Source: Candidatus Omnitrophota bacterium
GTDB taxonomy: Bacteria > Omnitrophota > Gorgyraeia > 2-01-FULL-45-10
Reading direction: 5' to 3'
Length of the DNA stretch: 64,000 bases
NCBI GenBank assembly: GCA_041663425.1
Contig: JBAYMS010000003.1
Location: forward strand, 1,959 to 65,958
Position numbers and translations under genes: made by a program. The notes under the pieces were generated by a model. That model made no database searches. It saw only the letters and a program-made list of their open reading frames with translations, and was not told the origin of the DNA. Shown one piece after another: positions 1 through 64,000 of the stretch; positions within the stretch are counted from its first letter, which is position 1, and each line of letters opens with the position of its first letter.

Positions 1-3000
1 GAGTGGCGGATATCATATTCTTTCATTAACGCTGAACCGATATCGACGCCGGAACCTACAGGAAAATCGCCCGGCTTGTAAGGTGCCCTATAAAGCGTAA
101 GACCGCCCCTCTCCAGGATTAGCTCGATGCCCGTAGTATTCATGTCGGCTATGAGCGTTTCGGAAACAATGCTGAATACCGCTGTCCGCTCAATACCGGC
201 AGCGTTTTTATATGGCACTATCCAGATGGGGCGATTACTTACATATGCCACTCTTCCACCTGTCAGAGTTATATCTTCGCCGATCTTTCGGGCCATACGC
301 AACCGCATAGAGTCAGATATCATATTAAGCTGATCTGCCTGCGAAGATCCTAGAAGCCTAGTCTCAATATCATCTTTAGCGCCCTCATTATTTTGCCCAA
401 GAGTTAACGCTATAGGCCTGGTTTCGGTCCTTCTCAGGCTGCGATGCTGATAATAAACAAGGCTTATTTCTCTGACTGAGATCTCGCCAAGTTTGCCGTT
501 TCTGGCCGCTACTATGGCGTTAAGTTTCTGAGCCAGTAACTCTCTTTGTTCCGGGGTAAGCTTGTCGAGGTTCTTTATATATCCTATTGCCGTATGCACC
601 CCATTATGCCTGTCAAAAGACCTTATATCAAAATTGGCAGCGTCAAACAAACCTTCACGCAACTTTTGCAGCTCCAGGCTGCTATCCCCCTCACCAATGA
701 AAAGGATCTCTCCGGAATTATTTATCTTTATGGAATTAAAGCTCAGACCAAACGGCTTTCCGTTTGAAACCATATCTACAGCCTTAGTAAGATCGAGAGT
801 GGCCGGAGCTTTTCTCTCTGTAGAATCATAAGTCAAACTTGTTACAGGGCTTGCCTGGCTGCGAACCATAGTCCCTACCGTAGTATGCATATGATACGAA
901 TCGTAGAATGAGCCATTTTCCTGACCGATAACCTCAGTTATGGCTTGCTGCACTTCTTTGGCCGTCTCAAGAAAATCTTTAAACTTACCGGTATCCTGCT
1001 TAAGATAAGCTACTGAGGTAAGCCCATACTGAGTGGTCGAAGGATTATTATCTACAAGCCGCTTGGAATAACTATTCCCAGGCTGCGGAATAGTTATATT
1101 CGGTAAAGTTCCAATCTGAGGCTGTCCGGAAACCGGCTTTGCATTATTATCAGCCATCAACATAGCTTCAACTTCCGGCAGAGAATCTAATACATTCAGC
1201 TTCTGGCCTGGTCTGCCCAGCTCCAATGTCTCGGCTTTCAACACTTCATTGTTAGACACCGTCCTGTGAGAATAGACCACAACCCTGAGGCTGTCTATTG
1301 AAAAATCCGGCAGCTCATCCATTCCCTCTTTTTTGAAAAGGGTATTAAGCTCATCTATCTGCCGCTGATCGATAGGCCTCGTAACACGGCCAAGGGTAAT
1401 ATGCATCGGAGCTTCTCTTTTTTCTGTCGGCAGAGTGGCTAAAGCATCCATAACCTTTAAAGTCTTATGCCCGTCTTTGTCCACATTAAATTCGCTGACC
1501 GGCTCAACTGTAAAATACAATTCTCCATCAAGTGAAGAATATTCAAATCCGGTAATTTTCAGGCTGAATGGCCTGGAAGATGAAGCAGTTTGGGCAATAT
1601 ATTCAGACAGGTCGCCCATGCTATTATCCGTCATTCTTTCCTTAATATCAGAGACAGCGTTTGTCAGCTCGGTAAATGCAGCGCTCTTTGAAGTCGGAAT
1701 ATCGGTATCAAAATTTCTTGTCCTTACTACAGGGCGGATCGTTATGAACAGCCCGTCGCTGCCCTGGTCACGGTTAAATTGAACCCTGCCGTTCGTTATT
1801 TCCTCTATCTTCTTACGAATTTCTGTAATGCCCCGGCTTAAATCCTGATTACCTTTATCAAGATCAACATCCGCCAGAACAGTTATTCCCAGCCCTCTTT
1901 TCCCGTTCTTGTGGATATTGTCGGCGATATGAACCGTATCAACAACGCGCTTGAAACCATCCACACCAAGTTGATCAAGGTAGGCATGCGCTTCAACGGT
2001 CAGCTGCTTAGCCAGAAGATGTTTGTATTTCAGATATATCATATGGAAGAATCCTTTATCTTCAATGACTCTTCCCAATGAATCACGCCGAGGCTTCTCC
2101 AGATAGTCCTTCTTCTCTTTCTCACTATTCCAGTATCTGTATTTACCATTTGCGTCAGGAACATCGTTTATAATATCACTGTAAACCATGTCGTAAGCCT
2201 GGGCGATCTCCCTATTAAGTGACCTTAATCCAAATATCTCGCCCATAAGAAAAGAGATGTGATTTCTCAGGAAACCAACATGCGGAACCGGCTGCTCAGC
2301 TGCTGAGCGCGGTAGCGCAAACTCAATACCTGCCAGGAATATATCACGATATACACGAAGATGCCTGTACTCAGTTTTAATCGTGTTTATCTCATCCGCG
2401 GCATACAGCATTGGCCCGCGGCTCTTCTTGGCTTCTTTAGATGCCTGACCGGCGTCTGTTCTTATTTCAATTTTGGGTTTCCCATATAGCGTACCTATAT
2501 ATTCACGCATCTTTACTTCCAGATACTCCTTAAGCGTTATATATTTCTGTCCGTTAAATTCGATGGGCTTACCATTATCATTTTCTATGTAGAATCGGCG
2601 GTCGCGCGCACCAGAAAGAATATTACTGCTGCCTCCCGTAGCATCGGAAAATTTTTTGATCAGATACTGAAAATGAGACAACCCCAGCTCATCTATAAGC
2701 ACAGGATTATTCATTACGGCATCGACATACCATTCCGCATTCGCGGGCCTGGAATTTTCCGGCATACCGAAATACTCTTCCAGCTTTACTGTGTCGTCCT
2801 TGTTTATAATGAGATCCGTAAACATAGAGTCAAACGGAATTCTCCTGCCAACCCTCTTCGCAACCGCATCTTCTATCATCCGAAGCATGTCAGGTATGCT
2901 GAATTCTGTCGTCTCGTTATCGCGATTCGGATTAATTATCAGAACTATCGGGATGTCGCCTTTGGCCCGGCGCTTCTCTAAAGCTTCGGCTAAGCCTTCT

Positions 3001-6000
3001 ACCATAAAATGCGGCATGATGCTGGTCAAGAAACTGCCCGGCCCGAAAATTATTCCTTTTGTCTCAGCATTCTCAACAGCGGCTATCATATCCTTATTAG
3101 CCGGTGTGCTTCTATTGGTCCGTTTTCCATCCTGGTCCACCAACCCCAGATCTTCGATCTTGGAAAAATTGGCCGTTTCGCTAAAATGCGTCTGCATCTT
3201 TGTAAACCTGCTTCTTATATAAACATTCTTTCCGCCCATCACAAGAGCCTTAGTCTCTGCTTTATCAGACCTGGCAACCCCAGGCTTATAAACCATACCC
3301 GTTCCATCAGTTGCTATAAGACGCTGCTTATCTTCGTTCGCTAATTTTACCGCCGTCTCTTCAACAAGACCTTCAGGCTCTATCAATTCCGCAAATTCTG
3401 AATCGCCTACCTTAATAGCAAAGTTCCTGTCAACTTCTGACATGCGTAAAACAACCGGAAGCATGCCTACAAACACTTTTTTCTCCTCGCCGGCCTTTAT
3501 TGTATATTCTTTATATAAATTTGTGTCATCCTTGTCGAGTATTTTAACGGTGGTTTCGCCTCTGGCTTTGTCAACATGGACTACAAGCGCGCGCAGTTCC
3601 TCGACAGATTTAACAACGCCATTCTCGCTCACTTTCGGTTTCACCTCTATTATAACGACATTATCTCTGTAAACAGCATACATCGTTTCGGGATTATTAT
3701 GCGACAAAGAAACCCTGCCGTTCCTGACTCCCGCAAGCTCTGCCATGGAATCGAGTGCTACCTGAAATTTGCTATAATCAGCTTCCGTTGCAAGCATAAA
3801 ATCGCGGCTGCCCGGAGCATGGGTAGGTTTGGCAATGCCTAAATAGTCCAATGCGCTTATCAGCATCAGGTTTCGTATTGACGCTCCGCTTACAGGGATT
3901 ACGGATTTTTCGAAATAATTAGCATCGATACGGCGCGCTAAATTTAAAACACTCGCGGCAAAATACGCAAAATCTTCGCTCAACACATTTGTCTTCTGTA
4001 TTCCTCCTATTCCCTGCTTATTTATAACGGTCTGGAGAACGATACGGTTTAGGAGCTTTACGGATAATTCAAAGAAAGAATTAAGATATGTGACATTTCC
4101 GGCATCGTCACGATAAACGATCTGACCGACGTGTTCTCCCGCGTCCGCAGGAAGCTCTTTCTTTGCGATTGCCTCCGCTATTTTTTCTTCTTCAGAAGGC
4201 ACTACATCTATTCTGCCCTGGGCATCCAAAAGTTTATATAGCTTGTCCGCTTCGGCAAATCCTTCAAAGATAGAATTAACCATATCTCCGGGGGAAGGCA
4301 TCCAGCCATAACCTTTATTTATGAGCCCGGTAACACTTTTAAATGTAGATCCGCCGTCATCGGTAGAACATTGCATACTTCTGACATAAGCGCCCATCTT
4401 CACAAGAGGCTTAATAGAAGCTAAAAGGCCGGTGCCGCCTCCAAAAGCAAGGATAGTCTTTCTATCTTTCGTCCTGTCTCGCCCAGCCATAATATTTTCT
4501 ATGGTCTTTTCAAAGCTTCGGATCTTATCAGCATCTGTGGTTGGAGCAAACATACCGGCTATCACATCGTCAGGGCTCTCCAATCCCATCTCTTTATGTG
4601 TTTTCAGGGCTTTATCTATATACTCCATCATCAATTTTTCTTTACCGCCAAAAACCTCAAGAAGGGATTTGCGCTGCTCTGCTATAAGCCTTGCGCGCAA
4701 AATAAATTCTGTTAATTTATCGTTATCAGCCCTGCCAAAAACCTTATCCTGCAGGCCAAGCCCGTCCTGAAGGTTTCCCTCGTCGAGCGTCATCTCTTCC
4801 CTGACGCCCAGTCTTATGCCTTTACCTTTGCCTCTAAGATAGGTATGATTTCCAACATTTACCCCTGGAACAGCAGGGTTTGAAGAAAGAAATCCTTCGC
4901 CGCCTTCGTGAAATAAGGCGATATGCCCGACTTCGTTATTATTGATACACAGTTCTGAGATAGCTATTATTTGCCCATCCGAAAAACCAAATACATTTTT
5001 ATCGTTCTCTTTCAGGACAACTATGTTGCCTTCCCGCTGCTTGTCTTTTATAAACTGGATAATTTGTCCTGCGATCTTTTTATCTTTTCTGCTTAACCCG
5101 GCACTTTTAACTGCGCCCTCCATCGCTTTGATCTGGCGGTCTATAACACTGTCGTGCGCCTTACCTAAAACACTCAGGTCAAAGGAGTAGCCCTCTCCCT
5201 GAGAAGTCTTGGCAGTAAGCGTTAATTTTTTACCGTTCGCGGATAGGGTGCCTTTAAACCCTGTTGCCGCGCAGCCGTCAGGTCTTCCTATTAAACCGCC
5301 AGTAGGCGGGCCTGTCGAATCCACCGGAAGAATCGCAGCGCCCGAAGGCATCTTTGTAACCTCGGGAAGCTGGGAAGCAAAAGCCCTCTGGAACTCTTCG
5401 TTAAATTCATTTGTAGACGTTATAGCATCTATTATAACTTTTACGGTTTTTCCATCGGCGCTCTTACCCTGTTCTTTTAAATAATTAGTGAGGCTAAGCT
5501 TCATTCCGGATATATAAGCCTGTTTGATAAAATTCTCATCGCGTGTTAAAACCTGATTTGGATAAGCAGCCAATACTCTGCGCAGCCATCCACTCACAGC
5601 ATATGAAAACCAGGTTTTCCTGAAATTTACCGTTCTGTCCGTAATGCCTTCTACAAGACTCACTATTTCAGCGTCCATGGGCGAGCACTGAAGGAATGCT
5701 TTTAATTCCTTAGGGGACATCGTTGCAAGCTCAACAGCCGATATAGGCGCAAGCATACCCTTCTTCGAAGCCTCGGGGCTGGCCAGTATATCTTCTATCG
5801 GGGTGCGCTGATTGGTAAGGACCTGAATATATGGAGTGGGGACATCTTTTGTGATGGAAGGACATACTACCACATAAGACACGCCGCGTTTCTCGAGAAG
5901 TTTCGACATGCCTTCAGAGTGGAATCCGCCCGTGACAAGAACCGCCACCTGCAGTTTATCCTTCTCCATCGCTTTTATCGTATTGTCAACAAGCGCCTTA

Positions 6001-7355: not shown

Positions 7356-7360
7356 AATAG

Positions 7361-7367
7361 CTCTCCT
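7361..7367 (-). promoter_or_regulatory. Shine-Dalgarno (AGGAG) for gene 3
   Basis: Minus-strand AAAAGGAGAGCUAUU-AUG, with the AGGAG core 6-7 nt upstream of the start codon. Confidence 0.5.
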
Positions 7368-7420
7368 TTTATATCATTGGGTAAAAAGGTGCCTTTTCTT
7401 TTATTTACAGAACGTGCATA

Positions 7421-7449
7421 AGTCTATCATATATAAGGAAGCAAGTCAA
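7421..7449 (-). promoter_or_regulatory. Candidate sigma-70-type promoter for gene 3 (TTGACT-17-TAGACT)
   Basis: Minus strand reads TTGACTTGCTTCCTTATATATGATAGACT in the AT-rich spacer about 70 nt upstream of the gene 3 ATG. The -10 element is imperfect (4/6). Confidence 0.3.
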
Positions 7450-7492: not shown

Positions 7493-7564
7493 CTCTCGCG
7501 AGCCGCTTGGCGGAAGCTGCGAGAGCGAAGACCAACCTACTACCGGGGTGGCACCACGGTAGTA
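7493..7564. terminator. Two intergenic stem-loops between the gene A stop and the gene 3 promoter. They may be a terminator or other RNA structure.
   Basis: CTCTCGCGAGC..(12-nt loop)..GCTGCGAGAG at 7493-7525. TACTACCG-(11-nt loop)-CGGTAGTA at 7538-7564, followed by TTTT on the plus strand. On the minus-strand transcript no clean U-tract follows either stem. Confidence 0.3.
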
Positions 7565-7577
7565 TTTTAAGCCCATA

Positions 7578-32660: not shown

Positions 32661-32745
32661 TTGGGAGATTTTCCTTTTTTTAAAGCTTTTCTACTTCTCT
32701 ACTGCAAACCTGTTAAAACTAACTTTTGTCATGTCTTACGTATAT

Positions 32746-32773
32746 ATTATATCATATAATACTAACTTGTCAA
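32746..32773 (-). promoter_or_regulatory. Consensus sigma-70 promoter for gene A (TTGACA-16 nt-TATAAT)
   Basis: Minus strand reads TTGACAAGTTAGTATTATATGATATAAT. The -35 element is at 32773-32768 and the -10 at 32751-32746. It lies in the 198-bp AT-rich spacer about 85 nt upstream of the gene A ATG. A weak AAAGGAAAA lies about 12 nt upstream of the ATG. Confidence 0.55.
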
Positions 32774-53800: not shown

Positions 53801-56800
53801 TTTCAAGAGAGCGGGTAAGAGCATTTATGATACGAAGCTTTTCAAGGTCTTTATTTTTTTCAGCCGCGATATACAGCTCTGCCGCCTTACCTTTAAATGC
53901 GGAGTCTATCGCACCTTCCATATCGCTTGTAGTAAAACCTGCAAGCATAGCAAGAACGGTCCTGGCTTTTTGACGAACGATAGAGGAGGCTTCTTTGTCT
54001 GTGGCTATAAATATTAAGGCGGTTACGCGGTCGGAACTTTCCTGGGAACCTTTATTAGCATCAATATATTCGATAATAGGCTTGGCTTGGGCTGCAACAT
54101 CTGCGGCTGGCTGATCGGATTCGGTTAAGAGGGATTCAATGACACTTCTTTCTCTGCGCGTTGAGGGAGTTTCCGCTAACACTGCAGCGGGCGGAGCAAG
54201 GCCATGAGTAGCAACACCGGGATGTGTAGTCAGCGCGGCTGCTTTAGCAGCCTCCAACCTGCCTATTATCCCATCAATATCTACTATGTCTGCATCGGCT
54301 ACGGGCGTTACATCCCCTAATGGTATCCATCCCAAACCGCCTTCGGTCTGATGCCATACAGCAACACCCTGCATCCCTGCTTCAAATGCCGACGCACCGG
54401 CCATTGTGCCTCCTTCGGCGGCAAGCACAAAATCCGGCTCTGCGGAAGTGGCATGTATAAGTTCGTGACCTATTAAAAACAGATCTTTCTTAGCTACTAA
54501 GATAATTATGCGTCCATCCTCCAGCCTGATCGTAATACCATTCTTCGCATCACCTTTATATCCCATGAGCGCGGCTATTTTATCGATCTTTTCCTGTTCT
54601 GTAAAATACACAGGATGGCCGTATCCGGCAAGCATCACCGGAGAACCCTCCCATATTTTTTCCAGTATATCCACAGCCCTCGGGGCTATTTCTTCGGGAG
54701 AATTTGTATTATTAAGCACTATCTTAAATAATTGTTCCCACTTTTTAACATCAAATTCCACTCCCGCTTCAGCAAAAGCTTCTTCGAGGGCCAGATACGC
54801 TTTATCCCTTTTTTCACTCGACCACTTCCGGAGCGCAGCTCTCATGTGCTCAATTTTCACAGTCTCTGATTTTCTCGACTTTGCGACATCCTGCGCCATA
54901 TTAAATATCTGCGCCAGTTCCGCGCCGGTCAATTTTCTTTCAAGGAAACCCTTCAAATAAGCATTTGCCCTGTAGCTAAAAGCCATCCAGTATTTAAGCG
55001 CCTGTTTAAAATCATCCTGCGCTAATACCCTGACTTTGTCTTCCTTTTTCGCTTCTTCGTAAATTGAATAAGCAATTTCATACATACGCACCATTTCGGC
55101 ACCTGCGAGAGAGCGGCCGATAGCAGCTTTCCATTGCTGCGCATTCGCAACCCAATCGGCAATTACAGAGTCAACATCCGTTCCTGCTCTTTGGGCAAGG
55201 CCATAAATATACAATGCTTCTTCAGCGGTCGGCTCTCTTTTAAGCGATTCAAACCCTTCTTTAATGCGCTTAACGGTTTTTGCCCAATCTTCTGCCGCGG
55301 CCTTAATATGAGCCAGAGCAACAGGATTGTCTTTACCGGCAAGCTGTGCGGCAATACCTTCTATCTGAACCGATTCTTCTTTATCAGCTTCTCTTCCCAA
55401 CGCCTGCTCCGCTAATATTTTCTTTGCCGCCTTTAAAATATTTTCTTTTGTTAAATTTTCGCCCCGCACAGTCGCCATCTTTATTATCTTCTGCAGCAGC
55501 CCGGAATCTTCTAATAATTTTATAGCCCCTGCGTCAAGGCCGTTTTCAGCTAAGATATTTTTTGCAGCTTCTGACATCTTAGCTTTTTTGCCGCTTATCA
55601 TCCTTATGGCAGCTGCCCTGACAGCATCATCATAATCTTCGTCTTCTTTATAATCTTCTCTTCTGACTTCTTCTTTTATGATGTCAGCCAGGGCTTTCTC
55701 TTCACCTGGAGTAACTTTAAATCCTTCTTTCTCAAAAACCTCACCAACAAGAATAAGTATAAGATAGTCGCCTAAATGCGCCTTAACCATTTCGTCCGCT
55801 GCGGCTTCTATGTCTTTTTTAGTCAGCTGTGCTGTTTTTGCTTTTTCGGCCAAACTGGTTTTTATAGCATTAAGGATATCAGACCTCCTGGCCGCGGATG
55901 CTTTAAGCCCGTTATTCCAGAAAATACCGGCAATTATGCTGAGTATTTTCATGTCCGCCTGTTCCTGCGCAGCGCGGTCTAAGTCCGCCAGGGTCGGCTT
56001 GCCTTTGCCTGCCTCTTTAGCCGCACGGGCTCTTATCTCGGTTATATCACGTCCTGTAACATCCACCATAGTTCCGCCCGCAGCATCTACAGAAGCAAGG
56101 CCGTAGGAAGCAAATACTCCCGAAGCCCTCTGCCGCACCATATCATTAACAACTTCTTCTATAGCTTTACGCGCCGACATCGCTGCATTGGCTTGTCTTT
56201 TTTGGCTGGCTGCTTCCATAACCTGAATAAACAGACCGTAATCATGCCCTCGGATACCGCCAGCATCTTCTAGCACATATTTCATTACCAACTCAATAAT
56301 ATTTAAAGCGGTTATATCTTTACCAAAAAATCCTGAGCGCATCATTTCGCCAACTATATCATTTATGAAGCTGTCGGATAGGGCAAGCGTCCCGCCAAGA
56401 GCCGCTGCCGACATTTGCCCTTTAAGTTCGCTCACAATCAGTGATCGGATACTCGCTTCGGCCGCTGCCCGGATAGTATCTATTGTAGGTTTTTCCGCTA
56501 ACTTTTTTGCATCTGCTTTTATAGCATCTATCTCGCTCCGGGTAGCAGCTCTGTTAAACATCTTCATAAATATAGCATCTATATGCGCATCGACAGTCCG
56601 TTCCGCCGCTGCCCTGGCAAAAGCCTTTATTTGTTCAAAATCATACGTCCTGCCGTCCTTTAGATTTTTACGGACGGTATTCATATCTCCAGTCGATGGC
56701 GAAATACCGGCCTCTGCCATGCCTTCAGTTATAGCGTCCCGGATCAAACCGTTAACCAGATTTTCAGCCGCCATCTCTATCTCATGCGCCCTCTCGTCAG

Positions 56801-59800
56801 ATAACGCAGGAGCCATGGTTAAATAATCTGCTACCATTTTGCCGAATATCGCATCTCTCTCGACCTTGGCAAGCACTACTCCGCACACACGCAACACACC
56901 TTTAAGTATCCTGTCTATTTCGGCTTTCCTGGCATTTATAATTTCTCTGGCGGCTTCCCTGGCAATATCCTCAAGCTTGCTGCCTGCCTTGGCAGACGCC
57001 ATCCTCTCTTCTACCACACTCATCAAGTAATCTACTTCTGCTTCAGTTGCCGTCCTTTCAGCAGAACTTAATATTTCATTCAGAACCCGCCTGGCCGTAT
57101 TTCGCTCAATAATTTTCATTGCGGATTTTTCCGCGCTTTTCGCGGAAAGCGTCCCATCTGTTATTTGTTCAATATCCTTATCATTTATAAGTCCTTCTGA
57201 TATCTCCCTGGCAAATTTTCCTTTTAGCTCTCCCTGCATATTGGCTTTAATGCGATCCCTGTCCCAATCGGCTTTATTCCTTGCGGCATTTCTTATATCT
57301 TCAAGTGTAGGTTTTTTATTCTCGCCTGCGGCTAATTGCGCATCACCCATCATCGATTTAATAAAATCAGGATTTGCGGCCGCGTCGGCACTGAAGCCTT
57401 TTTCTCCAAGAACTTCCTCTATGACTTTTCGCATCTCTCTCTCAGCTTGCGCCTGAGCCTTGTGCCACAATGCTTCGGCAGGCTTTGTCTCCCTGGAAGC
57501 TGAATAGTCAAATAATAGCTCATCTTTAAACTCAGACAGCATGCCTTCCATTTCCTCTGGCGAAACAGACATTCCCGCCTTGGCAAATCCTTCTGTAAGA
57601 GCACTACGCAATAAATTCTCCACCGCCTGGCTTGCCGCACGCCTCGCAGCCGAGTTGCTAAGCTTAAGGTCTTTTGTAGCAACTCCTTTAACGCCGTCGG
57701 CCTGCTCCATAGCAGTAAACAATTCAGACCACATCTCTGTCGTTACGCTATCCGGGTATATTCCAAGTTCTGCCAACTCACCATATATAAAATCTTTAAG
57801 CGTATCTTCCCTTATTTTCGCCGCATCCAATCTGGCGGCAAGCAGTTTTGGACCTCTCTCAAGAACGGCAGCTTTAACATCCTCCGCCGTTACCGTCTTT
57901 GCTTTGCCTTTTACCGCACCTGCCGCTCTCCTCATATAATCAAGCACCTGCACCACTTCTGCCTCAGTAGCTTTCTGGCTATGAAAAAAGTCTTTAAGAA
58001 CATCTGCTATTTCATTTTTAAGCCGTTTTTCAGCCGCATCCCTTTGCGCCTTCAGCGCAGCGAGCCTCTCCTCCTCCTTGCGGCTTCGTTCAATATCTCT
58101 CAGCTTCGATGCAAGTTTTTCGCTTATCCTCTCCAGCGAGAGCCTTTCTCCGGCCTTGGCGCTGACAGATGTACCCGCCATTACCTCTCTGAGACCTTCA
58201 CCCTTTACGAGATTATCGATAAAAATTTCCTTACCATATTCAGTAACACCTATACCATTTGCCAAGGCAACTGCGTCTATTGCTTTACTTATCGCATCTC
58301 GTATAAGCTCATCACAAAATTCAGGCGTTATAGTCTGGGCTGTAATACCGGATTTTTTCGCTGCGGCTAAAAGTTCTTTTTCTTCGTTTTCGCTCAAATT
58401 AATACCATGCATGCCTGCCGACTCAGTAATAGTACCCAGCATTTCGGCTGTTTTCTGTTTGGCAAATTCACTGGCGGCCTCTTCCATCACCGCTTCGTTG
58501 CACCTACCCACACCTGTTGTTTTAGTAAGTTCGCCTTCATCTTTAGGGGCGAGGGCGGCCTTTTCTGTGGCCATTTTAATTATTTCTTTTTTTATGGCTT
58601 CCATTTCCGCGGGCGAGAAACTACTCATATCGATCCCGCTGCTTTTAAGCCCTTTATCGATAGCTTCGGTTAAAATAGCATTAAGGCGGGTCCTGATTTC
58701 CTTTTTCATCTGAGATGTCGAGACTCCGTCTTTCTGAATACCATCCCGCACCGCCCTCACTATGGATTCACTTGGCAGCCATCCAAACCCCATAGCTTTA
58801 AATTCATCATCAATAGCCTTCTCCATTGTTTTTTCAGCTCTTGCGGTCAGTTCTTTTTTAAATTTATCCGCAGTCTGGGCTTCGCCAAATGCCGCTTCAT
58901 TCTCTATGCCTGCTCCAACCTTTCTGGCAAAAGCTTTGTCATTCCATTCTGCCATTATCGAATCTACGACTTCCTCAGAAGGAGTAAGGCCTACAGACGC
59001 AAAAGCCTCAGTTACCATAGAAGTTATAAGAATTTTTAATAACGCTTTCGCTACTTTCAATATATCTGCATCCGCAAGGCCTTGGCCATCCAATAAACTC
59101 TTAAGGTCCTTAGGGCTTATCTTTACGTCTTTTCCATCAAGGGATATGTCGTATAAAGCAAGCGCCATCTCCTGCATATTTTCCGCCAATGCCCGCAGCC
59201 TCTGAGAAACTACTTTCTTAGCTTCCTTAACCGCAGCATCAGCTGGTGCTGTCCGTTCGGCTATTTCCATTAATTCAGCCTTGGACAAAACCTCACTGCC
59301 CGTCACCCCACCTCTCACAGCCTGCTCCCTCACAAGAGCAGCTCTGAGTTTCGCACTTTTATACTCAGCGACTCTTTCTTCGGCCGCTTTTTTAAGTCTC
59401 TCTGCCTCAGCTTCCTGCGCAGCCCTCTTCTCGGCAGCGGCTTCAGCAGCAGTTTTCTCGGCGGCGGATTTCTCGGAAACGGCTTTATAAGCAGCGGCTC
59501 TATCGGCGGCGGCTTTCTGAGCGTCAGCACGCGCAGCAGTAATTTTCTCAGCAGCAGTTTTTGCGGCGGCTTCTTTTTCCGAAACAGCTTTCGCAGCGGA
59601 GGCTTCTTTTTCGGCGGCAATTTTTGCGGCGGCCTCATAGACGGCAACTTTCGCGGCGGCGGCCTGCTCTGCGGCAGCTTTCGCTTTAGTGGCTCTCGCG
59701 GCGGCGGCACGTGCGATGGCAGCTTGCGCAACGGCGGCTTTCTCAGCGGCGGATTTCTCGGAAACGGCTTCCTCTGCGGCAGAAGATTCCTCGGCGGTTA

Positions 59801-62800
59801 TTTTAGCGGCGGCGGCTTTCCGAGCGGCGAGTGCTGCGGCGGCCTCATAGACGGCTTTTGCTTCCTTCGCTGCTTCGGATCCGGCTTTCGCAGCAACGGC
59901 CTCTGCCTCCATCCGCGCTTCAACTTCGGATTTCGCAGAGACTTCCTCGGCAGAAGCTTCCTCGGCGGCTATTTTAGCGGCAGCGGCTTTCCGAGCGGCT
60001 ACATCAGCGGCAACACCTGCCACAGCAGCTTTCACGGAGGCAGCTTCTGCTTTTGCCAATGCTTCGATTTCGGCCTCTTGCCTGGCCCCCTCAGCGGCAA
60101 TCTTCTCAGGAGTAAGAGAAGGTGCTCCAGCGGAAAGTTTTGCATTTATTTCCTGCGCTAATACATCATAAACTGCTTTGGCAAATTCATAATTATCTTT
60201 AGCGAGCTTTTCGCCATAATTCATACGCTCCATTATCCTTTTAATTATATAGTTTTTAATATAATCATCGTGCTCTTTCAGGGATGCGCCCAGATTAATA
60301 GAAGATGCGATCATGCTTTCGGCAATTTGATAAGCCTCATCCTGCACATAGCCTACTGTAGCCCCCTGCTCAACTCGCCTCGCTATGATCATTTCAGCTA
60401 AAAGTTCGGTAAGTAAATTCATATTTTCGTCGAATAGATCCCCCGCCTCTTCACCTTCCATGCTTAATGTCGGCACCAATCTTATTATTTCGGCTATTCT
60501 TGCCACTTTATCAGCATGGCTTTTAAGTGCTGACCGGGCAGCTGTCTTCCTTAGCGCCGCAGCTTCGGTGTTAGCGGCGACTTTCTGGGCGTTTGCCTCT
60601 TCAGCAGCCTTTGCCGCTGCGGCGGATTCCTGGGCGGCTATTTTGGCAGCGGCGGCCTTCTCCGCGGCTTTTGCGGCGGCGGCTTCATAAACAGCTTTCG
60701 CTTTTTTCAGTGCTTCGGATTCTGTTTTCTCTGCAGCAACAACTTCTGTTTTTTTCAATGCTTCAGATTCGGCCTTTTGCCTGGCTTCCTCAGCGGCAGC
60801 GCTCTCCGCGGCAGCTTTATCAGCGGCGGCTCTCGCGGATGCAGCTTTCTCCTTAGCAGCAACGCTCTCAGCCGTAGCTTTCTCAACGGCAGCCTCCGCA
60901 GCAGCTATGTTTTCGTTTGCGGTTTTTTCTTCCGCGGCTTTATCAGCGGCAGTCCTCTCAGCGGCGGCTCTCGCGGATGCAGCTTTTTTGGCGGCAGTTT
61001 TCGCAGCAGCGGCCTCTTTGGCATCGGCTTCCGCAATAACATCTTTCTCAGCAGTAGCCTTCTCTTCAACAGCTTTCACATCGGCGGCTTCTTTATCCGC
61101 AATTCTTTTTTCCTCGGCAGCTTTCTTTGCGGCGGCTTTTTCCTCGGCAATTTTTGCTTCAGCCTTCTGCCGCGCTTCTGCTGCAGCCTTTTCGGCTGCA
61201 AGCTTATCCGCGACGGCTTTTGCTTCAGCGGCCTCTTCAGCAGTTTTCGCAGCAGCGGCCTCACTTTGCGCTTTTGCAGCGACATCTTCTTTTCCAGCGG
61301 CTTCCTTAGCGGCTTCAAGATGCTCCACGAAATTATTTTTTAAGTCTTCTGCCTTGTTTTTAAAGGCTATCCCATGAACATCAGAAAAATCTATAGGCTC
61401 TATCCTTTGGTCACCTTGTTCTAAAACACCTTTGTCGTGAAGAACCATCAAAGAGTTGTTTTCAAAAATTCCTTTGATTTGATCCAATACCTCTGTCTGC
61501 CCAATCCTTCCAAGCCTTGCCTTTATCGCTTCGTGGACAAGTTTCGGATTCTTTGCAAGAGCGCCATTAATGCTTTCAAATTCTGCTTTTGTCATTGTAA
61601 AATAGAAATTTGCATGAAATCGCCTTCTTGTAAATTCTACATAAGGCACCCTAACATATATAAATACCTTCCCCTTTACCATACTGACCAGCATAGTAAT
61701 CGGCTTAGTGTCAAACGAATCCGTAGAGCGTTCATACAGCGCTTTCCTAAGTAATTCGGGAATACTAAAAACAACGTCACCGTATAATCTATCAGCAGCG
61801 TTTTTATCTATCCCTTCCCAATAGTTACCTTCTCCGCCATCAGACCTGAAAGAAGCATTTACCTTAAAACCTACTCCCGGCGTATTATTCCCGAGAACAG
61901 CTATTGTTTCCTCCTCTGTTTTCGCCGGTATAGTAGATGCCTTGCTCTTCTTTCCAGCCACATCACGCGCTGTTTCCAGTCTAGATGCCTCAATGCGTTT
62001 TTCTACGAGCTTCTTCATAACACCTTTAGCTTCTGAGACATCCACGCCTCTTGTTTCGGCTTCCGATATCGCTTTTCTGAGATTTTCTGCTTCTTTGTCA
62101 ATTTCCTCAGATTTAAATACTCTTGTCAAAGGCTGGGATAAAATATTGCTATTTGCTTTGCCCATAGCGGCATCAAGCTCACCTTTGGCTTTGGCCTGGG
62201 CCTGTTTTGCAGCAGCTTCTTCAGCGGCTTTATTTACAATAGCCTTCTTAAGCATACCGGCCATATCGATAGCGTTATCTATTTGCATAGAAAGAAGATC
62301 CGCCATTTCTTTTTCATTCGAAGTCTCACGCGCCTTAAGCATTTCTATCTTCAACGCTTTAAGTCTGTCTACTTTCCTATCAACTTCCTCTTGCGTAGCC
62401 GCATTTTGTATTTCACTATCAACATCTCTGGCTTCTTTTATGATGCCATAGATATCACGTCCAGCCGTCACGGACTTAGCGGCCTTCTTTTGCGCTTCAG
62501 CTTTTTCTGCTGCCCTTAAACTCCTGATCTTATCTGTCATAGCCCTGCGCACCGCGACCTGCTGAGCATCATCCATTCCCGCACCGCTTATTTTTAAGTT
62601 TCGCACTTCTTCTTCAGACTTCGCGTCTCTGATTTGCGTAATAGCCGCTTCTACCCTTGCCTTCACCTCTGCCGCAGCGACTTCCTTGGCTTTGGCTTTG
62701 GCTTTGGCTTTTTCTACAACAGCAACCTTTGCGGCCTCAATACCATTCTCAAGTATAGACCTCAATTCTTCCTTCGCATCATCTATTTCATTGATTTCGT

Positions 62801-64000
62801 ATGAACCTTTATTTCTATAGCTAGCTTTTATCTTTTCCTGATACCTTAAACTCTCATCGAGACCTTCTAAAGCTCTTTCAAAATTGCCATCTTTCAGATT
62901 ACGAATAATACCAGCGAAACCCATAGAGAATTGATCCTCAACACAACCATTAGGCGCGCCTCTTGCTTCTTTTCTCCGTTTAAGACTTTCTCTTACGCCT
63001 TCAGCCAATTTAATACCTTGATTTTTTAGATTATCGGCTCTTTTACTGCCTGTGTCAGTTTTGGCTTTCACAGCTTTTTCGGATGCCATAGTGGCAGCTT
63101 TCTCCGCAACAGCTTTCGCAGACTCGGAGGCATCTGAAAGCTCCACAGAAAGATCCGTATTAAAATCAGCTAATGCTTTGCTAAATGCGGCAAGCCTATC
63201 ACCAGTCGTCATCTTTAACCAGGCATCCCGGCCGACTTCTTTCAACAACTTAGCCACAACATCTTCAAATGGCCCGGGATTGTCATCGCGCCACTGTTTT
63301 CCATTTTTGGTATTATTATCCAGTAATTGCTCGGCATCTTTTTCTACGGCGAGTTTCTTTTCTGCTATCATTTTTTCCGCCATCGCTATAACTTTGGCCT
63401 CATACGCTTCACCATCAATACCAAGTGCTTTATAAATATCGGAGTGAAGTCCTCTTCTCTCTGCCATTAAAGCTTCGAGTTCTGAAATACTCATATTATT
63501 AAGCTCTGAGTAATGGTAAGGCGTAAGACCACCCAGTTCTTTTCTGCCAAATCTCTGCGCCTGCTCAGCGCTTGCGCGTATATGTACTTCCCTTGCACTA
63601 TATCCTTGCTTGATCCAGTAAGCTTCCTGGCCTTCATGAAACAGCATTTCTTCAAAAACATCTTCGTAAGTAAAATTAGTTCCGGACAATCCCGCTTCTA
63701 CCCTTTTCCTGAAAGCCACGTTGTCATTAACAACGATTATTAACCTACCATCAGCAGTCCTGACATCAGTCCTGAATTGATACATCACTGCGGCATCGCC
63801 AAGATCAGCCGATACCATAAGTGCCTCTTCGCCGTTTACAGTTCTTGTTTGCCCCGAAGATTTAGCCGCAGCAAGAAATTCACCCTGGCGCGCCTGTAAA
63901 GCCCTTGCCTTTTCACCGGTATCCTCATCCGTGCCGACTCTCTTGCCAGCACCTGCTGCAGCTTCCGGCTGAGCCAGCTTAGCTAGCTTTACAACTGTAG
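32859..64000 (-). CDS. Giant polytopic multidomain protein, gene B (>10,379 aa; the 5' end lies outside the window)
   Basis: Uninterrupted frame from the stop TAA (32861-32859) to the window edge. Hand translation of 63819-64000 in frame gives ...[67 protein letters not shown] with no stop, so the ATG at 63818 is only the first in-window Met. Confidence 0.9.
   Translation of the reverse strand, partial: [10379 protein letters not shown]
33500..44700 (-). other. TPR / TPR-like superhelical region, about 3,700 aa, forming the C-terminal half of gene B
   Basis: Dozens of 34-aa-like helical hairpins with W-LG-Y / A-F-A-P signatures. Examples: [109 protein letters not shown]. Confidence 0.6.
44790..44950 (-). 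other. TM hairpin preceding the TPR half of gene B
   Basis: [55 protein letters not shown]. Confidence 0.5.
47110..47630 (-). other. Gly/Ala-rich multi-TM bundle (glycine-zipper-like)
   Basis: [47 protein letters not shown] ... [69 protein letters not shown]. Confidence 0.55.
49100..51520 (-). other. SecA-like DEAD motor ATPase domain (SecA_DEAD plus helicase-C-like), with a large insertion between the two RecA lobes
   Basis: [33 protein letters not shown] (motif I, 51353-51336), compare SecA QLIGG..L..GkIAEMk[31 protein letters not shown] (motif II, 51010-50977), compare [41 protein letters not shown] (motif V, 49983-49966), compare [47 protein letters not shown] (motif VI, 49185-49159), compare [29 protein letters not shown]. 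Confidence 0.7.
54050..54700 (-). other. Putative zincin-like metalloprotease module with a HELIH site
   Basis: [66 protein letters not shown]. HELIH is encoded at 54467-54453. Confidence 0.35.
56400..59050 (-). repeat. At least 7 copies of a divergent helical protein module with a TEG[FM]A[KE]AG[IM]S[PV]S-like signature
   Basis: [29 protein letters not shown] (58981-59030). [89 protein letters not shown] (about 57570-57625). [56 protein letters not shown] (about 56685-56770). [20 protein letters not shown] (56403-56452). Confidence 0.5.
59360..61300 (-). repeat. Two duplicated Ala/Glu/Lys-rich low-complexity helical blocks (GCN-codon repeats) separated by a short helical domain
   Basis: Block 1 is about 60540-61300 (..[37 protein letters not shown]..). 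Block 2 is about 59360-60110 (..[37 protein letters not shown]..). The DNA is GC[GAT]-rich and repetitive. Out-of-frame readings produce the K/R/P-rich shadow ORFs 59330-59731 and 61076-61318. Confidence 0.7.

Follow-up and report, generated by a model that had tools for sequence, protein, structure and literature searches.

A chromosomal array of Omnitrophota giant-protein genes whose products appear to share an N-terminal hydrolase-like head domain

Introduction

Giant proteins rich in transmembrane (TM) segments, in which a divergent SecA_DEAD motor is combined with modules for sugar metabolism and regulation, have been described in Omnitrophota (West-Roberts et al., 2023, 10.1101/2023.11.21.568195), and the same class is found in Nielsen and Lui (2026, 10.64898/2026.06.07.730766), where 5,761 proteins of >=10 kAA are counted. 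The type sequence of Archaeovorin is a giant protein of V. archaeovorus that has been reported to be expressed (West-Roberts et al., 2023). The locus described here fills a window of 64,000 nt (the whole stretch of DNA that was analysed, from a contig of an uncultivated Candidatus Omnitrophota bacterium) and is almost certainly a chromosomal array of genes from this described class. The three products appear to be built alike, with a Sec-type signal sequence, a conserved head of ~500 aa and a long body, and the bodies differ among lineages in their enzyme, ATPase, regulator and repeat modules. Taken as a whole (identity, head and mechanism together), the explanation favoured here is given a probability of about 0.5, as one compromise figure.

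The array resembles Archaeovorin in its phylum, its many TM segments and TPR/HEAT scaffolding, its divergent SecA_DEAD motor that lacks scaffold and wing and adjoins TM segments, its modules of glycolytic and sugar-phosphate enzymes, which are predicted to lie outside the membrane, its N-terminal regions without identifiable domains near the signal peptide, and, in relatives of the locus, the solute-binding proteins and glycosyl hydrolases encoded downstream. Archaeovorin giants, however, exceed 30,000 aa, as opposed to a tandem of about 3.5k, 8.4k and 11k aa in this locus; the glycosyltransferases, methyltransferases, glycosyl hydrolases, NUDIX, SAM enzymes and GGDEF that define Archaeovorin were not found in the window; and the N-terminal peptidase-like unit is TIKI-like here, but C39 or S8 in Archaeovorin. 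This locus encodes an SF1 helicase and an ECF sigma-like domain, whereas a text search of West-Roberts et al. (2023) found "helicase" used only for SecA DEAD domains and no mention of "sigma".

With the Class 1 "multi-enzyme metabolic cluster" and the SecA_DEAD architecture cluster of Nielsen and Lui (2026), the array shares its Omnitrophota origin, the SP+TM and SP-only topology classes, a set of sugar-metabolism modules (PGM/PMM, ROK and others, in relatives of ORF1), and the pattern of sequence-unique proteins with recurring architectures. ORF3 passes their >=10 kAA limit while ORF1 and ORF2 fall below it, and a text search of that paper turned up neither an N-terminal head common to several proteins nor tandem arrays of paralogues that bear one.

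Three adjoining giant genes

A six-frame scan of the window found three stop-free stretches in a single minus-strand frame (3..7373, 7581..32690 and 32862..63998; 2,457, 8,370 and 10,379 codons). All 11 stops among the 21,332 codons of this frame lie inside two spacers, and the three ORFs contain none in 21,190 codons, as opposed to 24-87 stops per 1,000 codons in the other five frames. Chance cannot account for open frames of such size (log10 P about -49 for ORF1, -167 for ORF2 and -208 for ORF3), and the window is made up of three real, co-oriented, adjoining giant genes, as a preliminary description of this DNA had claimed.

ORF1 (3..7355, minus strand) begins at an ATG at 7355 with the RBS AAAGGAGAG upstream and leaves the window at its left edge after 2,451 aa. 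Its identity to NCBI protein MFA6320397.1, which comes from a MAG of Candidatus Omnitrophota (72,883-bp contig), is 100%. This partial record of 3,104 aa extends ORF1 by at least 653 aa, and the true size of ORF1, estimated from P0002/L009, is probably about 3,500 aa. ORF2 (7578..32660, minus strand) is complete at 8,360 aa. ORF3 (32859..63998, minus strand; stop codon 32859-32861) has 10,379 codons inside the window and is open to the right edge. Since the earliest in-frame ATG of ORF3 in the window, at 63818, has no RBS, its N-terminus was placed outside the window; orthologues put the start ~800-850 aa upstream of the window edge, which would give a full size of about 11,200 aa. Both ends of the locus thus leave the window, as had been proposed.

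The two spacers had been called AT-rich and about 200 bp long. The sizes agree (222 nt, 7356-7577, between ORF1 and ORF2; 198 nt, 32661-32858, between ORF2 and ORF3), but only the second is markedly AT-rich (GC 0.25, as opposed to 0.43 in the first and 0.45 in the window). This AT-rich spacer carries a sigma-70 consensus promoter upstream of ORF2 (32746..32773, minus strand; TTGACA-16-TATAAT, 12/12, extended -10 TG) and the ORF2 RBS AAAAGGAAAA (32669-32678, minus strand), and a promoter-like site is found upstream of ORF1 (7421..7449, minus strand; TTGACT-17-TAGACT, 9/12 matches, TG extension). With these promoters and an RBS for each of the two genes, the genes of the array appear to be independently promoted. 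A GC-rich hairpin, CTACCGTGGTGCCACCCCGGTAG, lies 16 nt past the ORF2 stop (7540..7562, minus strand); it has no T-tract and was not called as an intrinsic terminator. Neither tRNA genes nor Rfam families nor any gene beyond the three ORFs could be detected in the window.

A shared N-terminal head domain

The products of all three ORFs apparently share a hydrolase-like head of ~500 aa that was previously unannotated. Both ORF1 and ORF2 start with a signal sequence followed by this head (ORF1 aa 13-526 versus ORF2 aa 43-566; 35% identity, 1e-82, blastp). The signal peptide of ORF1 (aa 1-34; 7254..7355, minus strand) combines an n-region rich in K/R with a hydrophobic core and a putative cleavage site between SNITFA and ES, with the c-region SNxAFA kept across the ORF1-type family, and the head behind it (aa ~50-530; 5766..7208, minus strand) has an alpha/beta core of the TIKI/erythromycin-esterase/ChaN fold. 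In ORF2, a hydrophobic signal (aa 41-57) and the head (to aa 566) occupy 30963..32540 on the minus strand. By inference from orthologues, ORF3 is also headed by a signal sequence and this domain: its aa 2-224 (63327..63995, minus strand) are 35-41% identical to aa ~809-1032 of giant ORFs from three other Omnitrophota MAGs, two of which (L002 and L003) open with the same head, and in L003 the head and SecA_DEAD are joined in one unbroken ORF of >3,779 aa.

The TIKI/TraB/PrgY - erythromycin esterase - ChaN superfamily, which includes Bcr135/136, EreC, HopBA1 and RRSP, is marked by two His and two acidic residues, and in the head the corresponding motif D-x-H...E...H is intact, where D81, H83, E111 and H479 (ORF1 numbering) are invariant in 67 sequences. 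The His-to-Glu spacing of 28 residues is also that of Bcr135 (H85/E113) and RRSP (H3902/E3930) (PMC6254334). Foldseek matched the head to Bcr135 with a probability of 0.6-0.69, the host-acting effectors HopBA1 and RRSP are among its best fold matches, and the ChaN Pfam model gave a sub-threshold score in two of six heads. Frequent fusion to extra domains and membrane-localising elements is a further likeness. The resemblance is confined to fold and motif, which speaks against the proposal made below: no Foldseek match with the head reached E<=0.001, TIKI-superfamily proteins were absent from its profile search of PDB sequences, and it has no Pfam, NCBIfam or PDB profile match above threshold. 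The head also differs from the superfamily in that its first acidic residue is Asp instead of Glu, its core is split by a helical insertion of ~300 aa, and it always stands ahead of a very long body, with an N-terminal position in 150 of 150 best matches (the best 150 of 6,516 clusters at E<=1e-10; proteins up to 7,834 aa). From fold and motif likeness, it is probable that the head is a TIKI-superfamily hydrolase, and it is the only candidate for the protease motifs that had been reported. Protein clusters of the head family number 7,941 at E<=1e-3, 6,516 at 1e-10 and 2,405 at 1e-30.

Body modules of the three proteins

In ORF1, the signal peptide and head lead into a soluble body. The signal peptide looks cleavable and no other TM segment follows, as is also the case in 61 of 67 ORF1-type family members, so that the earlier term "membrane-anchored" is unsuited to ORF1. 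The body contains a YvcK/CofD-like domain (aa ~970-1530; 2766..4448, minus strand) that starts at ILAFGGGTGL and has a large insertion within it (PF01933 6.5e-17; TIGR01826 4e-18, under cutoff). It matches PDB 2o2z/2hzb by sequence, and Foldseek found 2o2z with a probability of 1.00, the query being a low-confidence model. A possible 2H phosphoesterase (2'-5' RNA ligase-like) region (aa 1910-2029; 1269..1628, minus strand) is sub-threshold in Pfam (PF13563 E=2e-5, 25 bits versus a cutoff of 27) and has a weak 1fsi fold match.

ORF2 has about 22 hydrophobic TM segments and ORF3 about 6; these calls are crude Kyte-Doolittle peaks, from which membrane topology was predicted. Behind the ORF2 head, a first TM cluster of about 7 hydrophobic segments (aa 990-1906; 26943..29693, minus strand) is followed by a TPR tract in which single TPR models fall just under gathering thresholds (aa ~2637-2934; 23859..24752, minus strand) and by an Upf1-like SF1 helicase (aa ~3600-4136; 20253..21863, minus strand) with the motifs GPGGTGKT, VIVDES and FVGDQDQLP (AAA_11 6.8e-21, AAA_12 1.7e-19, IGHMBP2 family 1e-24; PDB matches SMUBP-2 and DNA2). 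At KD thresholds of 1.6-2.0, head and helicase are separated by an odd number of TM segments, and the two are therefore predicted to lie across the membrane from each other. A second TM cluster of about 10 segments (aa 4808-5699; 15564..18239, minus strand), of which aa 4925-5078 share 40% identity with the giant gene found upstream of the L004 orthologue of ORF1, precedes tandem repeats of 43 aa (129 nt) with copies 78-83% identical in nucleotides (aa ~7121-7348; 10615..11298, minus strand). Next comes an ECF sigma-70-like domain with regions 2 and 4 (aa 7447-7616; 9813..10322, minus strand), flanked on either side by hydrophobic segments (TIGR02937 1.3e-11, 44.4 bits versus a cutoff of 42.9, profile positions 3-159/165; Sigma70_r2 0.009). 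A possible protein-kinase-like region (aa ~7781-7952; 8805..9320, minus strand) shows weak, sub-threshold matches (Pkinase E=0.006, LanKC kinase part 0.004, PD-T4-6 1e-4), and the conserved C-terminal tail (aa 8037-8360; 7581..8552, minus strand) is 53% identical to the C-terminus of a 7,316-aa gene that comes before the GCA_041650935.1 orthologue of ORF1.

In ORF3, an Ala/Glu/Lys-rich low-complexity tract with up to 40% Ala, an HC2 match and short nucleotide repeats (aa ~750-1750; 58749..61751, minus strand) lies ahead of a SecA-like ATPase motor (aa 4197-4956; 49131..51410, minus strand; PF07517 1.5e-13). The motor aligns collinearly to B. subtilis SecA and has the motifs LLTGEGKT (with Walker A, GEGKT), FAETSNxNLAR, ITDEIDA (with the DEAD-type box DEID), the PPXD-like GNRRLSDG, TIFTEAGARGT (with motif V, AGARGT) and GRAGRQADP (motif VI). 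Walker A, the DEAD-type box, the PPXD-like element and motifs V and VI stand in SecA order, and the ATPase motifs are all present and conserved in L003. It differs from SecA in its large insertions, in scores far under the cutoffs of SecA models (4e-11; 42 bits versus an 814-bit equivalog cutoff), in its position at about residue 5,000 of a protein of ~11,000 aa, and in that no scaffold (HSD), wing (HWD) or C-terminal linker was detected in it. A Gly/Ala-rich TM cluster of 4-5 segments (aa 5468-5618; 47145..47597, minus strand; Gly-zipper match 0.003), an isolated TM segment (aa 6355-6373; 44880..44936, minus strand) and a TPR-rich helical region (aa ~6674-9178; 36465..43979, minus strand; TPR_19 3e-11 and 2e-10, TPR_11, TPR_8 and others), which is matched by designed TPR proteins in PDB, follow.

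HMM searches thus bore out most of the motif-based domain calls of the preliminary description, namely the TPR tracts (ORF2 and ORF3), SecA-like motor, SF1 helicase, YvcK/CofD fold and sigma-70-like domain, and its TM clusters in ORF2 and ORF3 agree with the hydrophobicity peaks. Its kinase-like folds come down to the single weak site in ORF2, and the amidoligase-like fold found no match in Pfam, NCBIfam or PDB sequence scans. Most of the length of the three ORFs has no match in Pfam, NCBIfam or PDB.

Gene neighbourhood and a proposed role

Named relatives are Omnitrophota in every case, in line with the likeness noted earlier, and ORF1 orthologues always have co-oriented large genes upstream. 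In L007 and L008 the immediate upstream neighbour bears a head of the ORF2 type (49% and 45% identity, respectively), and in L004 this neighbour carries an ORF2-like C-terminal tail (53%). In L004, L005 and L008, to which the downstream comparison extends (the contigs of L007 and L009 stop earlier), the downstream genes encode HAMP, PF10091 (GH144-like) and SBP_bac_1, together with GH94 in L004 and CBM_11 in L005 and L008. Judged from these sequences, the pair of an ORF2-type and an ORF1-type gene is conserved in relatives, beside glucan-utilisation genes. Body modules in head-bearing relatives vary and include PGM, UGPase, PGI, PFK, transaldolase, ROK and CofD.

It is tentatively proposed that the signal sequence would carry the head across the cytoplasmic membrane to its outer face, where this hydrolase may cut its own protein, or an envelope or host substrate. 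Because ORF1 has no further TM segment, its product would be released to the periplasm and possibly secreted, while TM clusters would keep the ORF2 and ORF3 products stitched into the membrane, with their nucleotide-dependent modules held in cytoplasmic loops (the SF1 helicase and a sigma-70/ECF-like and kinase-like unit in ORF2, the SecA-like motor in ORF3). This motor, having lost scaffold and wing and tethered by adjoining TM hairpins, might give ATP-driven aid in threading the extracytoplasmic segments of its own protein. Since the array in relatives stands directly upstream of genes for glucan uptake and degradation, its most likely role would be to make contact with a host or prey cell and to acquire and process the carbohydrates of that cell. 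The whole chain, from export of the head through carbohydrate acquisition, remains doubtful. Standard topology rules put the YvcK-like body of ORF1 outside the cytoplasm, and the PGM, UGPase and PFK modules of relatives are also predicted to be extracytoplasmic, where substrates and ATP are absent. No TM segment was found between the window start and the ORF3 motor (Kyte-Doolittle), and the head-to-motor interval of L003 has a single marginal hydrophobic stretch; the motor is therefore predicted on the side of the head, which conflicts with a cytoplasmic loop unless a TM segment sits in the unseen N-terminal ~830 aa.

Alternative explanations

The placement of such enzymes outside the producer would make sense only inside another cell, and the proteins could accordingly be exported effectors, in which signal peptide and head form a trafficking or autoprocessing unit and the enzyme, helicase and regulator modules are cargo, freed perhaps via flanking T2SS-like systems and acting inside a host or prey cell. 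This reading, which is unlikely overall, draws on the textbook signal peptide with its conserved AFA cleavage motif, the scarcity of other TM segments in ORF1-type proteins, the conserved head with extremely variable cargo behind it, the fold matches to HopBA1 and RRSP, and, from the literature, T2SS/T4P genes beside giant genes and a predatory or episymbiotic lifestyle. The effectors would be like the modular, autoprocessed MARTX toxins, which are likewise multi-thousand-residue strings of unrelated enzymatic modules and one of whose effector domains, RRSP, has the TIKI fold suggested by the best matches of the head. Unlike MARTX, however, the window proteins have a Sec-type N-terminal signal and (ORF2 and ORF3) many internal TM segments, which look integral to a membrane rather than cargo, and profile scans of the ORFs found no RTX repeats, CPD, T1SS signal, Rhs or known toxin-delivery module. 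Secretion genes and an immunity-like small ORF are absent from the window, and export would require proteins of 3,000-11,000 aa to pass through two or three membranes.

Also improbable is an arrangement in which the N-terminal helix is a mere anchor, and head and body stay on the cytoplasmic face as membrane-tethered metabolons, scaffolding sugar-phosphate metabolism and its regulation beside sugar importers. The domains are typical of the cytoplasm (YvcK/CofD, helicase, sigma factor, SecA motor; PGM, PFK and UGPase in relatives), the lack of clear TM segments between head and motor in ORF3 and L003 fits, stand-alone PGM and PGI genes after the ORF1 orthologue of L008 suggest gene fission, sugar-binding proteins and GH94-type phosphorylases are encoded downstream, and 46% of long proteins are read as TM-only with a cytoplasmic bulk (Nielsen and Lui, 2026). 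The charge bias in L002 and L003 (+3 ahead of the helix versus 0 past it) and the conserved SNxAFA c-region, however, favour N-in/C-out export and cleavage, and the odd TM count of ORF2 sets head and helicase on opposite sides.

Far less likely is that the locus represents a system without described counterpart, as the preliminary description had it. Although the bulk of its length is unmatched, and the union of a TIKI-like head with an SF1 helicase and an ECF sigma-like domain within a single protein of 8,360 aa was not found in West-Roberts et al. (2023) or Nielsen and Lui (2026), the class of TM-rich Omnitrophota giants with divergent SecA_DEAD and multi-enzyme modules is published in both, and ORF1 already has an NCBI record. 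The claim is refuted at class level and would stand only for the head domain and the particular combination of modules.

An anti-phage defence locus (Mokosh-like helicase, PD-T4-6-like kinase) is highly improbable: the matches (MkoA 3e-42 and PLuB helicase-like 3e-11 on the helicase, PD-T4-6 on the kinase-like region) are limited to an Upf1-like helicase core and a kinase fold, both of them generic and both buried in an 8,360-aa membrane protein, while partner genes and nuclease domains are absent and the head, SecA and CofD regions have no PADLOC matches. Equally improbable is an artefact of assembly or annotation, in which the giant ORFs come from a chimeric contig or from pseudogenes that have decayed or fused, for which the metagenome-assembled source and the single frame of the three ORFs, with gaps (7374-7580 and 32691-32861) that are both multiples of 3, could be cited, as opposed to the stop-free ORFs, the homologous segments in equal order in independent MAGs and metagenomes, the separate promoter, RBS and head for each gene (the ORF3 head by inference), and the uniform GC and codon-position GC.

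Origin and organisation of the locus

It is nearly certain that the window is an Omnitrophota giant-protein locus. The preliminary description, made from sequence alone, had guessed at this phylum and was right: the in-window part of ORF1 is 100% identical over its full length to P0001 (the NCBI record MFA6320397.1, Candidatus Omnitrophota bacterium), and all named ORF1 relatives belong to Omnitrophota or Omnitrophica. P0001 has 3,104 aa and is encoded on a 72,883-bp contig; ORF1 therefore runs at least 653 aa past the window to the contig end, and about 6.9 kb of contig lies to the right of the window. The loci related to the N-terminal segment of ORF3 (L001-L003) are on three Omnitrophota MAG contigs.

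The three co-oriented giant genes that had been described are borne out by a six-frame scan, in which one frame of the minus strand is free of stops across 3..7373, 7581..32690 and 32862..63998, that is, for 2,457, 8,370 and 10,379 codons. This frame has 11 stops in 21,332 codons, every one inside the two spacers, as opposed to 24-87 stops per 1,000 codons in the remaining five frames, which excludes chance open frames. On the minus strand, ORF1 (7355..3) starts at an ATG with AAAGGAGAG before it and has 2,451 aa in the window, its C-terminus lying past the left edge; ORF2 (32660..7578) is complete at 8,360 aa; and ORF3 (stop at 32859-32861) stays open up to the right window edge, encoding at least 10,379 aa. 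All three share one frame, for which the chance expectation is about 1 in 9, and the gaps in the stop-free frame, 7374-7580 (207 nt) and 32691-32861 (171 nt), are multiples of three. In the spacers there are 11 stops of mixed type as well as promoters and ribosome-binding sites, and both ORF1 and ORF2 start with a signal and an N-terminal domain of their own. Read-through by an alternative genetic code, uniting ORF1-ORF3, was therefore rejected, and the shared frame is taken as coincidence, a recent split being discounted too.

Both spacers had been called AT-rich, which holds markedly for the second (198 nt, GC 0.25) and not for the first (222 nt, GC 0.43). The second contains a predicted minus-strand sigma-70 promoter at 32746-32773 (TTGACA-16-TATAAT, 12/12 consensus, extended -10 TG, in 25% GC spacer sequence), and the first a promoter-like site with 9/12 matches. 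The 12/12 promoter is unusually strong for the gene of an 8,360-aa protein. No intrinsic terminator was called in the spacers, a GC-rich hairpin being present 3' of the ORF2 stop, and neither tRNA nor Rfam RNA was found within the 64-kb window.

A conserved N-terminal head

The sole similarity among the three in-window ORFs is that of ORF1 aa 13-526 to ORF2 aa 43-566 (35% identity, 1e-82), an N-terminal domain of about 500 aa after the signal sequence, here called the head. With ORF1 as query, 291 proteins of 1.4-4 kAA were found that have only the N-terminal ~600 aa in common (40-78% identity), while the bodies behind the head differ and include PGM/PMM, UGPase, PGI, PFK, transaldolase, ROK, nucleotidyl transferase and CofD domains. 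When ORF2 aa 1-700 was run with phmmer against 1.84 billion cluster representatives, 7,941 proteins matched at E<=1e-3, 6,516 at 1e-10 and 2,405 at 1e-30, counts that are underestimates, as the libraries appear to be without proteins longer than about 8,000 aa (ORF2 and ORF3 gave no self-match). In the best 150 of the 6,516 proteins at E<=1e-10 the match is N-terminal, and lengths reach 7,834 aa. Head relatives were absent from 72,556 plasmids and 50,697 phage genomes, which makes it less likely that the head came from a mobile element or phage.

For ORF3 the evidence for a head comes from its orthologues. Giant ORFs from other Omnitrophota MAGs match, at their aa ~809-1032, the first 190-224 residues that ORF3 has in the window. 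In the orthologue locus L003, aa 47-662 match the head of ORF2 (aa 43-656) with 36% identity (1e-113), and the second orthologue, L002, matches at 42% identity. In L003 the head and SecA_DEAD belong to a single unbroken ORF that exceeds 3,779 aa and is 32% identical over 1,041 aa to ORF3 aa 4113-5079. As these matching ORFs open with the head, we infer that ORF3 also starts with one, about 800-850 aa past the window edge, a start that fits within the contig remaining to the right.

No Pfam or NCBIfam model represents the head, and no Pfam match was obtained at E<=0.01. AF2 modelling with 37 sequences (pLDDT 82) gave a signal helix and linker followed by an alpha/beta core (aa ~60-165 and ~470-500) with a parallel beta-sheet, split by a helical insertion of about 300 aa. 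In an alignment of 67 sequences, and across ORF2- and ORF3-type heads, the putative catalytic residues D81-x-H83, E111 and H479 (the last in GGFH) are invariant. A 2His/2Glu catalytic motif has been described in RRSP (E3900, H3902, E3930, H4030) and Bcr135 (H85, E113) (PMC6254334), and the head has the same His-to-Glu spacing of 28 as both. The head thus likely belongs, as a distant relative that is probably capable of catalysis, to the TIKI/erythromycin-esterase/ChaN hydrolase superfamily; either protease or esterase activity is conceivable. It differs from the TIKI/TraB/erythromycin-esterase/ChaN superfamily in that the first acidic residue is Asp, not Glu. Support from other lines is weak: the resemblance of the head to Bcr135 has a Foldseek probability of 0.6-0.69, with no fold match at E<=0.001; the ChaN model PF04187 reached E=0.087 at best, in two of six heads; the head does not belong to PF01963, PF05139 or PF04187 by profile; and no member of the TIKI family came up when PDB sequences were searched with a head profile.

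In published accounts, the N-terminal regions of Omnitrophota giants are described as "lacking identifiable domains"; here they appear as one very conserved domain with a predicted hydrolase fold and an intact putative catalytic motif, in proteins whose lengths run from 1.4k to over 11k aa. A profile HMM of the head would provide a sequence handle by which long proteins can be collected and classified, and the head offers four residues for mutation.

The helical insertion (ORF1 aa 166-465, ~5961-6860) gave non-significant Foldseek matches (probability <=0.21) to the ClyA-family alpha-pore-forming toxins AhlB, SmhB and YaxA, which would be of interest if the head touches membranes.

Domains behind the head

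Domains were sought with Pfam, NCBIfam, PDB sequences and PADLOC on overlapping 1,000-aa chunks, and most of the 21,190 residues in the window had no match in these scans. Most of the domains listed in the preliminary description were recovered. For the amidoligase-like fold the domain scans of the three ORFs gave no match.

In ORF1, the proposed YvcK/CofD fold was confirmed at aa ~970-1530 (PF01933, 6.5e-17, 62.1 bits, the cutoff being 30) and is interrupted by a large insertion. PDB entries 2o2z and 2hzb were matched by sequence, and 2o2z was also the top fold match of a low-confidence AF2 model of the body (aa 870-2069, 7-sequence alignment, pLDDT 54), which was used for this match alone. 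The domain is no equivalog, because TIGR01826 scores 65.9 against a cutoff of 196. A sub-threshold 2H-phosphoesterase-like stretch follows at aa 1910-2029 (minus strand). Past the left window edge, aa 2452-3104 of P0001 (~650 aa) are 68% identical to P0002, an ORF1 relative; a PGI/SIS domain suspected here from an SRSGGTWE motif was dropped, with neither a Pfam nor a PDB sequence match.

In ORF2, the SF1 helicase that had been claimed is Upf1-like and lies at aa ~3600-4136, with AAA_11 (6.8e-21) and AAA_12 (1.7e-19) above the gathering score, matches to the IGHMBP2 family (1e-24) and MkoA (3e-42), and the motifs GPGGTGKT (Walker A), DE (Walker B) and GDQDQLP (of GDxxQLP type). The expected TPR tracts are present at ORF2 aa ~2637-2934 and, as TPR-rich minus-strand sequence, at ORF3 aa ~6674-9178. 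About five tandem 43-aa repeats in ORF2 (DSASRGHAPAVTALNDLTPTLLSIVENSAIDQDLR; minus strand, 10615-11298, aa ~7121-7348) have a HEAT or PBS-lyase-like look, yet matched no model; their nucleotide identity of 78-83% suggests recent internal duplication.

The sigma-70-like domain was likewise found and is ECF-like (ORF2 aa 7447-7616): the TIGR02937 match, at 44.4 bits, exceeds the curated cutoff of 42.9 and extends over profile positions 3-159 of 165, with regions 2 and 4. Two TM segments (aa 7640-7680, minus strand) come after it. The kinase-like fold stood less firmly: PF00069 reached 16.4 bits (E=0.006) against a cutoff of 31.7, although weak matches from three libraries, including LanKC (0.004) and PD-T4-6 (1e-4), agree on one site at aa ~7781-7952. 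ECF sigma-70 factors are free-standing, soluble proteins of about 20 kDa that bind core RNA polymerase, whereas the ORF2 domain is an internal segment of about 170 aa between hydrophobic segments. Certain ECF sigma groups are under the control of Ser/Thr kinases. The stretch aa 7447-7952 (9621-10322 and 8805-9320, minus strand), with its sigma-like domain amid hydrophobic segments, two TM segments and a weak kinase-like region, looks like a fused sigma/TM/Ser-Thr-kinase signalling unit near the end of a giant membrane protein.

In ORF3, the claimed SecA-like motor was supported at aa 4197-4956 by a collinear alignment with B. subtilis SecA, the common elements being Walker A LLTGEGKT, DEID…ARTQ, GASATA and motif VI GRAGRQADP. 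An ORF3 orthologue keeps, in addition, FAETSNxNLAR, the PPXD-like GNRRLSDG and, as motif V, TIFTxAGARGT. The DEAD-motor motifs thus occur in SecA order, as opposed to the HSD, HWD, CTL and full-length score of SecA itself: NF009538 gives 41.8 bits where the cutoff is 814, alignment above threshold is confined to the NBD1 part, and profile scans detected no scaffold, wing or C-terminal domains. Searches of metagenomes with the motor gave only three weak matches (24-30% identity). Before the motor lies an Ala/Glu/Lys-rich low-complexity tract of about 1,000 aa (minus strand, 58749-61751, aa ~750-1750; up to 40% Ala, with a histone-H1-like HC2 match), which may be a lineage-specific expansion because the SecA domain of L003 comes about 2,200 aa earlier.

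Comparison with described giant proteins

The claim that this combination of domains has no described counterpart did not stand, as the class has been published (West-Roberts 2023; Nielsen & Lui 2026). In the first study, Omnitrophota giants have numerous TM regions and a divergent SecA_DEAD without scaffold and wing, and their PGI and PGM modules are predicted to be extracellular, with solute-binding proteins and glycosyl hydrolases encoded downstream (West-Roberts 2023, 10.1101/2023.11.21.568195). The second describes 916 proteins of at least 10 kAA, 94% with TM helices or a signal peptide, reports a sugar-metabolism module and also a SecA_DEAD architecture cluster, and finds proteins of this kind in 93.8% of complete Omnitrophota genomes (Nielsen & Lui 2026, 10.64898/2026.06.07.730766).

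The window shares with these giants the Omnitrophota genome, the TM helices or signal peptide and the SecA_DEAD without scaffold and wing. ORF3, at 10,379+ aa, passes the length of at least 10,000 aa used in 2026, while ORF2 (8,360 aa) and ORF1 (~3,500 aa) fall below it, and none reaches the >30,000 aa of 2023. The Archaeovorin and Dockerin subtypes have a T2SS/T4P cluster upstream and PilZ, solute-binding proteins and glycosyl hydrolases downstream. Pfam and NCBIfam scans of the 21,190 aa found no Archaeovorin domains (glycosyltransferases, methyltransferases, glycosyl hydrolases, peptidases, SAM enzymes, NUDIX), and since the defining GT, MT, GH and NUDIX domains are absent the locus is no Archaeovorin in the strict sense. 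Nor did Pfam or NCBIfam match marks of MARTX, RTX, Rhs or NRPS-PKS proteins (RTX repeats, CPD, Rhs/YD repeats, condensation/KS).

The window as a whole is thus one more case of a phenomenon catalogued in thousands of proteins, leaving knowledge of Omnitrophota giants unchanged. Three elements were not found in the portions of West-Roberts 2023 and Nielsen & Lui 2026 that were consulted, namely a TIKI-like hydrolase reading of a shared N-terminal head in thousands of long proteins, a conserved tandem pairing of head-bearing paralogues, and an embedded SF1 helicase together with a sigma-like/kinase-like unit; other publications may describe them. The locus is ordinary for the phylum, yet provides a useful and testable handle on the export and processing of giants.

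Membrane topology and possible modes of action

TM segments were called as Kyte-Doolittle peaks, a crude method, and the clusters that had been noted were seen again, with about 22 peaks in ORF2 and 5-8 peaks in ORF3, whereas ORF1 shows no more than a signal peptide. ORF1-type signal peptides are of textbook form (K/R residues, a hydrophobic core and a conserved SNxAFA), and 61 of 67 ORF1-type proteins have no further hydrophobic segment. The N-termini of ORF2, L002 and L003 are signal-like, and their charge bias is positive on the N-side. On the minus strand, the ORF2 clusters lie at aa 990-1906 and 4808-5699, with isolated segments besides, and ORF3 has a Gly/Ala-rich cluster at aa 5468-5618 and a single segment at aa 6355. 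From head to helicase, the number of ORF2 peaks is odd at thresholds of 1.6-2.0 (7, 7, 5, 3, 3), which fits a head on the outer and a helicase on the inner side.

The favoured explanation, held tentatively at a probability of about 0.3, is a Sec-targeted, envelope-associated megaprotein array. The heads of the three products would face outward; the ORF1 product would be released, and those of ORF2 and ORF3 would be stitched into the membrane, their nucleotide-dependent modules lying in loops on the cytoplasmic side. In line with the proposal of West-Roberts et al., the SecA-like motor may help to thread the polypeptide of which it is part, and the function might be linked to carbohydrate acquisition from host or prey.

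An exported effector system, in which a head carries cargo, is possible if unlikely; the ORF1-type proteins, with their signal peptides and varied bodies, are the part of the data closest to it, and the TM clusters of ORF2 and ORF3 count against it. A fully cytoplasmic, tethered metabolon is unlikely. The signal-like N-termini speak against it and the topology of the ORF3 motor for it, since no TM segment was called in ORF3 from the window start to the motor and L003 has only one marginal hydrophobic stretch from head to motor. The motor is thereby predicted on the side of the head, in conflict with the favoured explanation, and this conflict, along with the predicted export of sugar-phosphate enzymes, amounts to the paradox noted in both published studies.

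Also quite unlikely is the broader proposal that the Sec signal and TIKI-like head form an undescribed, Omnitrophota-wide system in which an export/autoprocessing module is reused on thousands of proteins (1.4 to >11 kAA), delivering cytoplasm-type enzymes, ATPases and a sigma-factor/kinase unit to the envelope or to host cells; if it were true, tandem arrays such as ORF1-ORF3 would be paralogous cargo variants. An undescribed system is very improbable beside the published class. An anti-phage defence locus, for which PADLOC was among the scans, was considered and rejected, and an assembly artefact is scarcely credible beside a frame whose stops all lie in two spacers and a layout that recurs in relatives.

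Head-bearing members of 1.4-4 kAA are small enough to express, and so could show whether proteins of this kind undergo export and processing and at which site their "cytoplasmic" enzymes work, which is the central paradox of the giants.

Gene neighbourhood of the relatives

Five loci around ORF1 relatives have the same layout, in which co-oriented large genes (1,285-7,316 aa) always precede the ORF1-type gene. In two of them (L007 and L008), an ORF2-type head, 49% and 45% identical, opens the gene directly upstream (3,278 and 1,842 aa), and in a third (L004, GCA_041650935.1) the upstream gene of 7,316 aa matches the last 324 aa of ORF2 at 53% and part of its TM cluster at 40%. The domains of these upstream genes are wholly unlike those of ORF2 (radical SAM, PEP-utilisers, methyltransferases, DegT, HAD), which indicates that the head, and sometimes the tail, is kept while the middle is exchanged. 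The positional counterparts of ORF2 (L007 34-9870; L008 4344-9872; L004 1-9725; and ORF2 itself) range from 1,842 to 8,360 aa, with unrelated middle domains.

Downstream of the ORF1 orthologue, in L004 (19577-26645), L005 (20374-29951) and L008 (17054-26918), are genes for a HAMP protein, a PF10091 "glycoamylase", a protein of no assigned family and SBP_bac_1, followed by GH94 in L004 and CBM_11 in L005 and L008. PF10091 is the counterpart of GH144-type beta-1,2-glucanases, and beta-1,2-oligoglucan phosphorylases are among the members of GH94. Judged from these family assignments, the downstream genes look like a cluster for the utilisation of beta-glucan, possibly beta-1,2-glucan. L008 also encodes PGM and PGI as stand-alone genes, whereas in relatives such enzymes are fused to the head-bearing protein, a pattern that would reflect gene fusion and fission.
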